Below, piece after piece: positions 47,555-49,600 of a DNA stretch of 64,000 nucleotides; position 1 is the first letter of the stretch, and each line of letters begins with the position of its first letter. The translations under genes and the position numbers were made by a program. The stretch covers positions 3,532 to 67,531 of the forward strand of contig JBBDXN010000144.1 in the NCBI GenBank assembly GCA_040902305.1, in the 5' to 3' direction. Source of the DNA: Candidatus Rokuibacteriota bacterium (GTDB lineage Bacteria; Methylomirabilota; Methylomirabilia; Rokubacteriales; CSP1-6). Below the pieces are notes generated by a model, which was not told where the DNA came from, ran no database searches, and worked only from the letters and a program-made list of their open reading frames with translations.

Positions 47555-49600
47555 ATGATCGGTCTCGAGGGAGTCTCCAAGGGCTACGGTGGCCAGGAGC
47601 TGCTCCGTGGCATGTCCTGGCGCATCGGGCGGGGCGAGCGCATCGGGCTCGTGGGTCCGAACGGCGCGGGCAAGACCACGCTCTGCCGCATCCTGGGCGG
47701 CGTGGAAGAGCCCGACGCCGGCCACGTGCACCGGGACACCGGCGTCACCGTCGGCTATCTGCCGCAGGAGGTCACCGGCGGCGCGGAGCGCACGGTGCTC
47801 GCCGAGGCCCTCTCGGGATTCGACGAAGTCTGGCGGCTCGAGGCGGAGCTGGAATCGCTCGCCGCGCGCATGGCCGGCCCCGGCGCCGAGGCCAGCCTGA
47901 CCGATCGATACGGCGAGATCCAGCACCGCTTCGAGGCCCTCGGTGGATACCGGCTGGAGGCCGAGGCCAAGATCATCCTCGACGGGCTCGGGTTCGGCCC
48001 AACGGTCATCCATCGCCCGCTCGCCGAGTTCTCGGGGGGCTGGCGCATGCGGGCCGCGCTGGCCCGTCTGCTGCTGCTGCGCCCGGATCTCCTGCTGCTC
48101 GACGAGCCGACCAACCACCTCGACCTGGAGTCGCTCCAGTGGCTGGAGAACTTCCTGGCCGCCTACGAGGGCACGGTGGTCATCGTCTCGCACGACCGGT
48201 ATTTCCTGAACCGCATGGTCACCGCGATCTCGGACCTCACCGGAGGTGGCGTCACGCTCTATCACGGCGACTACGATCACTTCCTGGTGGAGCGCGAGGC
48301 CCGCCAGGCGCTCCTGGAGGCGCAGGCGCGCAACCAGGCTAAGCGCGTGGCCGAGATCGAGCGGTTCATCGATCGCTTCCGCTACAAGGCGTCCAAGGCC
48401 CGCCAGGTGCAGAGCCGGGTAAAGATGCTGGACCGCATGGAGCGGATCGAGACCGAGGCCGCGGCGCGGCGCATCCATTTCTCCTTCCCGCAGCCGCCCC
48501 GGACCGGCCGGCTCGTCGGCCGCCTCACCGGCGTGCACAAGGCGTACGGCGACAACGTCGTGTACGCGGGGATGGACTTCCAGGTGGATCGGGGCGATCG
48601 GGTGGCCCTGGTGGGCGTCAACGGAGCGGGAAAGTCGACGCTGCTGAAGATGCTGGCGGGCGCGCTGGCCTTCGATTCCGGCGAGCGGCTGCTCGGCTCG
48701 AACGTGGAGGTCCAGTACTACGCCCAGCACCAGCTCGACGCGCTCGATCCGCAGCGGACCGTGCTGGAGGAGCTGGAGCGCGCGGCCCCCGAGGCCCAGA
48801 TCTCCCGGCTGCGCACCATCCTGGGCAGCTTTCTCTTCAGCGGCGACACGGTGGAGAAGAAGGTGGCGGTCCTGTCCGGCGGCGAGAAGGCGCGGCTGGC
48901 CCTCGCCAAGATGCTCGCGCGCCCGGCCGCGCTGCTCTGCATGGACGAGCCGACCAACCACCTGGACCTCGCGTCCAAGGAAGTCCTCGAAGCGGCGCTC
49001 TCCGGTTTCACCGGCACCATCGTGTTCATCTCCCACGATCGCTACTTCATCAACCGCATCGCCACCCAGGTGGTGGAGGTCGCGCGCGGCCAGCTCACCA
49101 CCTACCTCGGAACCTACGACGACTACCTCGCCCGCAAAGCCATCCCCGCGGAACCCCCGCCCGCGCAATCAGCGACGACACCAGTCGCCGGACCACGGTC
49201 CGCCGCCCCGAAACGAGGGCCCGCCGGTGAAGCGAGTGTCCGCGGCAGTTCCCGAGAGTCCGCGGCCGGGGGGAGTGCGGGGGCCATTTCTGGGCCCCCG
49301 CATAAGAAGAGCTTCAAGAACGAAACGCAAGACAGCAAGAAGACCAGCAAAGCCGTCGACCGCGAGATCAAGGCCATCAAGCTGCGCCTCGGCGCGGTCG
49401 AAACGCAGATCCACGAGCTGGAGGCGCGCCAGCAGGAGATCGGGCTGGCGCTGGCCGATCCGGACCTCTACCGCGACGGACAGAAGGCCCGCGAGATCGC
49501 GCAGTCGCGGAAGGATACGGAGGCGCGGGTGGCCTGGCTCATGAAGGAGTGGGAAGATCTGTCGCAGCGGCTCTCCGCCGTCGCGGGGGAGGAGCGGTGA
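47555..49600 (+). CDS. ABC-F family ATPase (Uup/YheS-like) with C-terminal coiled coil
   Basis: Two ABC cassettes (GPNGAGKTT / GVNGAGKST; LSGGWRMRAALARLL / LSGGEKARLALAKML; LLLDEPTNHLD / LCMDEPTNHLD). A low-complexity linker contains R1 copy C. It ends in a coiled-coil tail. Confidence 0.92.
   Translation: MIGLEGVSKGYGGQELLRGMSWRIGRGERIGLVGPNGAGKTTLCRILGGVEEPDAGHVHRDTGVTVGYLPQEVTGGAERTVLAEALSGFDEVWRLEAELESLAARMAGPGAEASLTDRYGEIQHRFEALGGYRLEAEAKIILDGLGFGPTVIHRPLAEFSGGWRMRAALARLLLLRPDLLLLDEPTNHLDLESLQWLENFLAAYEGTVVIVSHDRYFLNRMVTAISDLTGGGVTLYHGDYDHFLVEREARQALLEAQARNQAKRVAEIERFIDRFRYKASKARQVQSRVKMLDRMERIETEAAARRIHFSFPQPPRTGRLVGRLTGVHKAYGDNVVYAGMDFQVDRGDRVALVGVNGAGKSTLLKMLAGALAFDSGERLLGSNVEVQYYAQHQLDALDPQRTVLEELERAAPEAQISRLRTILGSFLFSGDTVEKKVAVLSGGEKARLALAKMLARPAALLCMDEPTNHLDLASKEVLEAALSGFTGTIVFISHDRYFINRIATQVVEVARGQLTTYLGTYDDYLARKAIPAEPPPAQSATTPVAGPRSAAPKRGPAGEASVRGSSRESAAGGSAGAISGPPHKKSFKNETQDSKKTSKAVDREIKAIKLRLGAVETQIHELEARQQEIGLALADPDLYRDGQKAREIAQSRKDTEARVAWLMKEWEDLSQRLSAVAGEER
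49234..49320 (+). repeat. R1 dispersed GC-rich hairpin repeat, copy C, lying in-frame inside the ABC-F gene
   Basis: GAGTGTCCGCGG...GAGAGTCCGCGGCCGGGGGGAGTGCGGGGGCCATTTCTGGGCCCCCGCATAAGAAGAGCTTCAAGAA. Core 49277-49301. It is translated as ...ESAAGGSAGAISGPPHKKSFKN... Confidence 0.8.

Follow-up and report, generated by a model that had tools for sequence, protein, structure and literature searches.

How does a GC-rich palindromic repeat come to lie, in frame and without a stop codon, inside a gene for an ABC-F family ATPase? The question is raised by a 64,000-nucleotide stretch from a Candidatus Rokuibacteriota bacterium (GenBank assembly GCA_040902305.1, contig JBBDXN010000144.1, positions 3,532 to 67,531 of the forward strand), which was analysed at full length and is called the window here. 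An earlier note, made from the letters alone, had described such a repeat (R1) in this gene, and both the sequence and the open reading frame (ORF; 47555-49600, + strand), which stays open through the element and reads ...ESAAGGSAGAISGPPHKKSFKNET..., agree with it. We consider it likely that the ABC-F repeat is a member of a lineage-restricted, non-autonomous palindromic family of Rokubacteria (Methylomirabilota), similar to repetitive extragenic palindromes (REPs), which is tolerated in a linker of the ABC-F protein and whose hairpin is held by a family-wide force.

The pattern GCGGGGGCC-N7-GGCCCCCGC, which represents the core hairpin (Table 1), matched the window at exactly three places (4676-4700, 42636-42660 and 49277-49301) against 0.16 expected, and none of 100 shuffles reached three matches. 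A longer pattern that joins the left flank to the arm was found at the same three places only (0.00 expected). The three copies align over ~66 nt with shared flanks, and RNA folding gave a stem of 10-11 bp with a 7-nt loop for each of them. The two copies outside the ABC-F gene, hereafter A and B, had been described as intergenic, and this agrees with Pfam and with a gene caller based on GC content at third codon positions (GC3), which was written for this analysis and checked on the window. Copy A lies 3' of a GHMP-kinase gene (4776-5690, - strand) and 54 nt upstream of a tRNA-Gln gene on the same strand. Copy B starts 38 nt past the stop codon of an amino-acid permease gene (40752-42575), has a GNAT gene (42729-43700) downstream, and possesses an orthologous copy in another metagenome-assembled genome (MAG; locus L038), where the core is kept and the flanks have diverged. 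At locus L063 the copy is followed, by eye, by an apparent 5' end of a tRNA gene (GCCCATAGCTCAGT); a tRNA next to the element may recur.

The canonical unit is fully open in four of its six frames. The forward frame that is used in the ABC-F gene ends in a conserved TAA or TAG in canonical intergenic copies, at whose place the tail of the ABC-F copy has GAA. The left box had also been reported as duplicated at 49234 and 49254. Both boxes are there, with one mismatch between them; the duplication is, however, probably not peculiar to the ABC-F copy, because a second upstream GTCCGCSG box, at no fixed distance, was seen by eye in some intergenic copies (L023, L094, L089 and L106).

To place these copies in a wider context, species-representative genomes were scanned with the exact 31-mer GGAGTGCGGGGGCCATYTCTGGGCCCCCGCA; this pattern fixes the loop, so that loop conservation cannot be read from the scan. 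The 31-mer was found in at least 113 stretches, mostly at intergenic sites and nearly all in Rokubacteria/Methylomirabilota MAGs, names that the best ABC-F matches carry as well. The genome search proposed in the earlier note thus supports a dispersed repeat. These MAGs come from independent projects and from Illumina and nanopore data alike, and an assembly artefact is therefore excluded. Some element contigs are labelled 'Nitrosotalea sp.' (an archaeon) or 'Candidatus Acidoferrum sp.' (L004, L007, L054 and L067, DATIWG01; L001, L010, L017, L044 and others, DASQAL01); the L007 contig also holds an ABC exporter with close Methylomirabilota homologues, and these MAGs are probably mis-binned or mislabelled.

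The flanks of 118 copies revealed a mosaic unit, (TARACGGN)TGTCCGCSG-ACTGGGGGAGT-hairpin-A-(G/T)MTGAAGAGCYTGAAGAAS-TARACGGNTGTCCGC, whose modules are a GTCCGCSG box, GGGGGAGT, a GC stem of 9-10 bp with the loop ATTTCTG, and a GAAGAGCYTGAAGAA tail. GTCCGC sits 13-14 nt upstream of the start of the 31-mer in 78 of 117 copies. Most copies are single and inverted pairs are rare (L078); head-to-tail arrays with a period of 73-74 nt (L085 and L095), half copies without loop and right arm (L015, L026 and L050) and alternative right-hand modules, such as TTAGATAGAG followed by a second hairpin, were also observed. A subfamily (L008, L051, L068, L076, L078 and L107) is marked by a further small hairpin, CCGCGC-GNAG-GCGCGG, immediately upstream of GGGGGAGT, and in L051 and L107 an additional inverted partial arm, TGCGGGGGCCCAG, is present that could form a larger multi-stem structure.

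Intergenic copies are nearly always located 3' of a gene, and the 31-mer starts a median of 63 nt after the preceding stop codon. Among the 84 that could be classified with the GC3-based caller, 67 lie between co-directional genes (39 >E> and 28 <E<, E being the element), 14 between convergent and 3 between divergent genes; divergent contexts are thus depleted (binomial P=1.3e-7 for 3 or fewer). An intrinsic terminator was rejected as a candidate, as A(G/T)ATGAAGAG, and not a T run, comes after the stem in the three window copies and in the family consensus, and a CRISPR reading of the family was rejected on architecture. With Rfam 15 at the gathering score only the tRNA-Gln (4534-4604) was matched in the window, and a permissive scan of 49150-49400 returned chance-level matches only (E of 0.5 or more).

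The host protein consists of two cassettes (ABC_tran) joined by ABC_tran_Xtn, without a transmembrane domain in Pfam, which is the architecture of the ABC-F family. It scores 436.9 with the generic ABC-F model NF000355 of NCBIfam (cut-off 380) and falls below the NCBIfam equivalog cut-offs for Uup, EttA and YheS. Since the element codes for residues 561-590 and ABC_tran_CTD covers residues 611-670, the repeat is situated after cassette 2 and ahead of the C-terminal coiled coil, in the linker that joins the two, where it had been placed before. This linker differs in length and sequence among 120 orthologs, with the exception of the element peptide. In an AlphaFold2 model built from 50 close orthologs, which is poor overall (mean predicted local distance difference test, pLDDT, of 52), residues 530-596 have the lowest confidence (pLDDT 25-31) and no secondary structure. 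A 591-nt contig from soil metatranscriptomes covers ABC-F ortholog sequence and runs through the element; it agrees with the element staying in the mRNA, DNA carry-over being possible. An ORF for an HNH endonuclease of 119 aa (49549-49908, + strand; Pfam HNH, E=1e-12) begins in a different frame, 52 nt ahead of the stop codon of the ABC-F gene.

Among ABC-F orthologs the copy is an old, clade-specific insertion, and the metagenomic orthologs form a gradient. The peptide GGSAGAISGPP, with up to four substitutions, is present at the same position in 119 of the 120 best orthologs (80-91% identity) and twice in 13 of the 120, and the ABC-F gene of L032 has two full copies and a half copy. Residues S569-P582 are at least 90% conserved in 50 aligned orthologs, within a surrounding linker that is hypervariable. 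Metagenomic orthologs with a C-terminal identity of at least 65% have the hairpin intact or with one mismatch; several at 56-60% contain a decayed relic (e.g. GGAAAGPVSRPPQKK) whose hairpin has 2-3 mismatches, and below this range no trace of the element was found. Of 150 representatives with identities of up to 65%, not one has the element peptide, and no hairpin was detected in 184 kb around distant orthologs, against 8.6 expected at the density of the window (P=2e-4). The lineage-specific insert of ~25-30 aa that the earlier note had suspected is thus seen in close orthologs and is missing from the 150 distant ones. Orthologs carrying the peptide in genomes that lack the repeat, which would have implied a coding origin, were not seen: peptide and repeat family are absent together, and the insert goes with the family.

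The tail subtype (PPH-K-K vs PPQ-M/L-K) tracks ortholog similarity, which speaks for vertical descent and not for repeated re-insertion. In one ortholog, P0080 (696 aa), a different frame is used for the linker as a whole, element included (GECGGHFWAPA; ..GRGECGGHFWAPAYEELKEGDG..), and the usual frame is restored before the coiled coil. This switch may be real or may reflect two compensating assembly errors; if real, it implies that the linker is only a spacer.

The ABC-F gene is not special in hosting the element. Many other proteins were found to carry it in frame, and in every case the site is a loop, a linker or a terminus (Table 1). Of the copies sampled, about one in five is intragenic, and at least nine protein families are involved; the view that an in-frame copy is unusual is therefore not upheld. 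Moreover, orthologous loops contain it in different orientations and frames. In the major facilitator superfamily (MFS) transporter the loop reads GSAGAISGPPH in the forward (L105) and AGAQKWPPHS in the reverse orientation (L016), in PMT_2 it reads GVRGPFLGPRI (forward frame 0, L064), RGPRNGPRTPP (reverse, L040) or AGAQKWPPHS (reverse, L086), and in the exporter the copy is either forward (L007 and L066) or reverse (CGGPEMAPAL, L070). Among 120 exporter orthologs, ~95 have a forward copy, ~9 a reverse copy and ~10 are relics in which only the hairpin is deleted (DPLI followed directly by ADR). Stop-to-stop ORF spans are too noisy at ~70% GC and were replaced by GC3-based frame scoring and Pfam; a query of concatenated reverse-frame peptides returned 22 short, mostly unannotated ORFs and was of no use for listing hosts.

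Between two strains with 99.4% identity in the upstream gene sequence, the element differs by two in-frame deletions of 45 and 36 nt, through which one box unit and the loop with the right arm are lost. Such differences between near-identical strains imply that the region is an indel hotspot, with selection for frame as a filter. Copies at L037, L109, L020, L090 and L030 form C-terminal extensions, with no stop codon between RuvC and the element in L020 and L090. Together with the TAA or TAG that the element itself supplies, they indicate that the family also remodels protein C-termini and stop codons.

On the basis of these data we give next to no credence to the idea that the similarity is derived from coding sequence, i.e. 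that fragments or pseudogene remains of the ABC-F linker make up the dispersed copies, or that the three window copies are alike by chance in GC-rich DNA. Nothing beyond the shared sequence speaks for it. Chance is excluded by the pattern counts, many intergenic copies have a modular structure of their own, and the reading is refuted by the genome scan, by distant ABC-F orthologs without the insert and by copies in both orientations in unrelated genes.

The stem was then compared at silent sites. In eight ABC-F orthologs found by protein similarity, none of the six four-fold-degenerate stem codons (GCG GGG GCC / GGG CCC CCG) varies, compared with 36 of 49 four-fold codons in the flanking ABC2 and coiled-coil regions (Fisher P=0.0009), and pairwise synonymous codon differences amount to 0.075 in the hairpin and 0.22-0.27 in the domains. 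The rare A/T-ending codons AGT, ATT and TCT are kept despite a genome GC3 of ~0.9. Synonymous changes in hairpin codons fall in the loop (ATT>ATC and TCT>TCG), and the loop Ile is the most variable residue of the element peptide among 119 ABC-F orthologs. A similar result was obtained for the exporter, using eight orthologs (82-92% amino-acid identity) that were chosen for a kept element peptide, a choice that leaves silent sites unconstrained: 0 of 6 stem codons vary, against 293 of 348 four-fold codons elsewhere (P=2e-5). The invariance is therefore a property of the family and not of ABC-F, which argues against both an ABC-F-specific regulatory hairpin and purely peptide-level selection; we saw no evidence for a function specific to ABC-F.

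Exaptation of the ABC-F copy as RNA, in which the hairpin would pause ribosomes or direct RNase cleavage and thereby tune ABC-F synthesis (autoregulation), is thus improbable. In its favour are the strong hairpin (10-11 bp GC stem), its retention with invariant silent sites and its presence in 119 of 120 close orthologs. However, the exporter copy is equally invariant, the gene persists in sister lineages whose hairpin is decayed or missing, the copy number ranges from 1 to 3 among ABC-F orthologs, and single stem-breaking substitutions are tolerated in L114, L115 and L118. It is very improbable that the peptide SA-GGSAGAISGPP-xKSLKKET is a functional ABC-F linker motif, for example one that contacts the ribosome or nucleic acid via its Lys-rich tail, although the peptide is nearly invariant within a hypervariable linker and the Lys-rich tail is retained. 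Selection on the peptide leaves the invariant silent sites unexplained, P0080 reads linker and element in another frame, other hosts have the element in other frames and orientations, and distant ABC-F orthologs function without it.

If the ABC-F copy belongs to a tolerated palindromic family, as we propose, an ancestor of the clade would have gained it in the DNA for the disordered linker between cassette 2 and the coiled coil. In the ABC-F frame the element has no stop codon and would code for a flexible Gly/Ser/Ala/Pro peptide followed by a Lys-rich stretch, which the protein would accept as a spacer. The copy would have been passed on vertically, with in-frame duplication now and then, and the ribosome would read straight through the hairpin. 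Inside and outside genes alike, the hairpin appears to be kept at the nucleotide level by a family-wide force, which might be purifying selection on a cis-acting DNA or RNA site, or concerted evolution or drive involving the dispersed copies.

Several points weigh against this proposal. The linker is probably disordered, as judged from its composition, its variability and a structural model of low quality, and translation across the element is suggested by the open frame and by ortholog conservation. Neither terminal inverted repeats nor target-site duplications could be delimited, and because of this mobility is deduced only from differences in presence, absence and orientation. A motif search for a transposase (RAYT or other) found no HUH...Y motif among 866 predicted proteins in ~0.9 Mb of flanking sequence, this being a weak regular-expression screen only. 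Finally, the silent-site constancy of old orthologous copies is not predicted for a purely neutral passenger, and a constraint or a homogenising process must be invoked.

It is also possible, although we do not favour it, that the whole family is a functional genome-wide cis-signal, each copy being kept by purifying selection or molecular drive, and that the ABC-F copy is a site of this kind that falls within an ORF by coincidence. The signal might be a binding site for a host protein (as for gyrase or IHF on bacterial interspersed mosaic elements, BIMEs), a 3'-end site for RNA stabilisation or processing, or an uptake-signal-like sequence restored by biased recombination. The 31-mer is identical over many species-level MAGs, the silent sites of the stem are invariant in two unrelated hosts in which 73-84% of other four-fold sites vary, the stem is less variable than the loop, the core of copy B and its L038 counterpart is kept beside diverged flanks, and copies are nearly always next to a 3' end. 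Soil metatranscriptome contigs, which represent assemblies that give presence only and neither RNA ends nor pausing, hold the element at very high depth and at many loci. On the other hand, this depth can include DNA and many loci, in-frame deletions lose or halve copies between near-identical strains, hairpin-deleted relics persist in many exporter orthologs, and ABC-F relics of sister lineages have lost the hairpin while the gene was kept. Furthermore, an uptake sequence predicts isolated single arms, none of which was found in the window, no compensatory stem changes that would prove selection on structure were seen, and no binding protein is known. We tentatively raise, without considering it probable, a stronger form in which every copy, including coding ones, is held constant by a sequence-specific genome-wide process, such as a candidate protein that binds or cleaves the hairpin, or a drive of the uptake or conversion type. 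If so, the loops of Rokubacteria proteins would have to make room for a fixed nucleic-acid signal of ~30 nt, and the ABC-F copy would be a functional cis-site overlapping an ORF and not a decaying passenger. In any case, stem invariance in two unrelated genes is a clean and testable anomaly that bears on the old open question of what preserves REP-like hairpins, be it selection, conversion or drive, for which hundreds of orthologous intragenic copies are available for comparison.

Table 1. Features of the ABC-F copy, its host gene and the other copies in the window, and further host genes of the element (positions in the window, or locus)
Feature	Position or locus	Strand	Evidence
Whole in-frame element copy	49234-49326	+	Direct sequence reading; codes residues 561-590
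Upstream extra A-box GAGTGTCCGCGG, read A-S-V-R-G	49234-49245	+	Sequence; peptide ..SVR.. kept in close orthologs
Left module, A-box GAGAGTCCGCGG (near copy of GAGTGTCCGCGG, one mismatch)	49254-49265	+	Sequence
Left module, second part, G-run GGGGGGAGT	49268-49276	+	Sequence; left module overall 49254-49276
Left arm of hairpin GCGGGGGCC	49277-49285	+	Sequence
Loop ATTTCTG	49286-49292	+	Sequence
Right arm of hairpin GGCCCCCGC	49293-49301	+	Sequence
Core hairpin, translated A-G-A-I-S-G-P-P	49277-49301	+	Sequence, pattern count, RNA folding
Right module (tail) ATAAGAAGAGCTTCAAGAACGAAAC, read H-K-K-S-F-K-N-E; starts ATAAGAAGAGCTTCAAGAAC	49302-49326	+	Sequence
ABC-F family ATPase gene, 681 aa	47555-49600	+	ORF, Pfam, NCBIfam
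Linker coding region holding the element, residues 530-596	49142-49342	+	Ortholog variability, AlphaFold2
ABC_tran_CTD coiled coil, same frame, 3' of element	49385-49564	+	Pfam residues 611-670; helical hairpin, pLDDT 82-89
Intergenic copy A, loop ATCTCTG	4658-4723	-	Alignment, gene call, Pfam
tRNA-Gln(TTG), directly 3' of copy A	4531-4604	-	tRNA context
Intergenic copy B	42613-42680	+	Alignment, gene call, Pfam
ABC-B exporter, linker between transmembrane and nucleotide-binding domains	L007, L066		Pfam
ComF-like protein, after double zinc ribbon	L028, L098		Pfam
MFS transporter, central loop	L105		Pfam
PMT_2 glycosyltransferase, loop	L064		Pfam
SPOR protein, linker	L045		Pfam
400-aa protein of unknown function	L053, L062, L083		
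Methyltransferase-like protein	L041, L091		
C-terminal-tail copies	L037, L109; RuvC in L020, L090		

Besides R1, the window contains several other repeats. Three tandem copies of a 46-nt unit (TCGCCAAACTCGAATGTATTCGCTCGCCTCGCCTTGCGGCTGCAGC), two identical and one 80% identical, occupy 3407-3545, in the gap between two minus-strand genes and just downstream of prs (3572-4510). A perfect 40-nt inverted repeat (CGGGTGGGTCCTGTCACCGGGGGGCGCGTCCCGGCGGACG; 12085-12124 and 12194-12233, 69-nt spacer) is unrelated to R1, and a 28-nt inverted repeat (GGGGTCAGGTCTTGCATTACGACATTTC; 54639-54666 and 54698-54725, 31-nt spacer) is 96% complementary and relatively AT-rich. A 195-nt direct repeat (50768-50962 and 51263-51457, 83% identity) lies over ORFs resembling cold-shock proteins. 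Tandem paralogous genes were also found at 38890-40755 and 40752-42575 (spacing 1814-1817 nt, 71-79% nucleotide identity), the second of which is the amino-acid permease gene that precedes copy B.

[quoted passage not shown] The Rokubacteria element, however, has no inverted repeat besides its central hairpin, and the ACGGNTGTCCGC boxes on its two sides are direct repeats. Assignment to the MITEs was rejected, as there are no terminal inverted repeats, a pair of filled and partly deleted alleles gave no target-site duplication, and no parent insertion sequence is known. The earlier label 'REP/MITE-like' therefore fits in its REP part, with regard to copy number and gene-context pattern, and not in its MITE part.

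Uptake signal sequences (USS) of Pasteurellaceae and DNA uptake sequences (DUS) of Neisseriaceae occur as an exact sequence at many loci in related species, also within genes in tolerated frames, and their inverted pairs form hairpins downstream of genes. A drive of this type, and not a function at each locus, would explain the conservation of silent sites. In contrast to USS and DUS, the Rokubacteria element is far sparser (~1 per 20 kb), and the window has no isolated single arms.

Similarity to REPs and BIMEs is seen in the short GC-rich stem-loop of high copy number (a 25-nt hairpin, three in 64 kb and at least 113 stretches with the 31-mer), in mosaic clusters, in a patchy lineage distribution, and in copies that supply stop codons or lie in ORFs, in flexible linkers. 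The genomic context is also alike, downstream of coding regions and between unidirectional and convergent ORFs, rarely between divergent ones; REPs have been reported mainly between unidirectional or convergent ORFs, 3' of coding regions (Di Nocera et al., 2013, PMC3733652). REP superfamilies are defined by a GTAG or CGTC tetranucleotide directly flanking the stem (PMC3733652), whereas neither abuts the Rokubacteria stem, whose flanks are GAGT and AGAT/ATAA: in the consensus the stem is preceded by ...GGGGGAGT and followed by A(G/T)ATGAAG, or, on the other strand, preceded by CTTCAT.. and followed by ACTCCCCC. Clusters are head-to-tail or made of half copies here, and REPs and REPINs typically form head-to-head or tail-to-tail dimers. 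In addition, no RAYT was found in the sampled Rokubacteria flanks (by motif regular expression only), and the conserved unit reaches well past the hairpin into the A-box and tail modules. Because the tag is absent and the clusters are head-to-tail, the family is not a member of the GTAG/CGTC REP superfamily as defined.

Palindromic repeats inside genes have already been documented, namely Rickettsia palindromic elements (RPEs) and GTAG/CGTC REPs, and intragenic REPs are on record from Opitutus, Thauera and Rickettsia (PMC10969869, PMC3733652). By function, the best match for the Rokubacteria family appears to be with RPEs and such intragenic REPs, in that a repeat seems to be tolerated in frame in flexible parts of unrelated proteins. 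RPEs are dispersed palindromes, also intergenic, which lie in frame in many unrelated genes and are translated at fold-compatible loops, linkers and termini; the corresponding sites here are in ABC-F, the ABC exporter, MFS, PMT_2, ComF-like, SPOR, the 400-aa protein, the methyltransferase-like protein and C-terminal tails. Sequence homology to RPEs is unlikely in view of the differences in phylum, size and base composition, and the likeness appears to be one of function only. Rokubacteria are free-living and of high GC content, whereas Rickettsia is obligate intracellular, AT-rich and of another phylum, and the Rokubacteria unit has ~50-75 nt with a GC-only stem, compared with ~100-150 bp for RPE-1. 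It also differs in that one loop of orthologous proteins holds the element in different orientations and frames, and that invariance of stem silent sites was measured. Selfish DNA inside protein-coding genes, best known in Rickettsia, is thus extended to a free-living, uncultured, high-GC soil phylum, in which at least nine protein families have the element in linkers and loops. For annotation, the peptides GSAGAISGPP, AGAQKWPPHS, CGGPEMAPAL, RGPRNGPRTPP, GECGGHFWAPA and GVRGPFLGPRI are signatures by which repeat-derived insertions, and probable permissive sites, can be recognised in Rokubacteria proteins.

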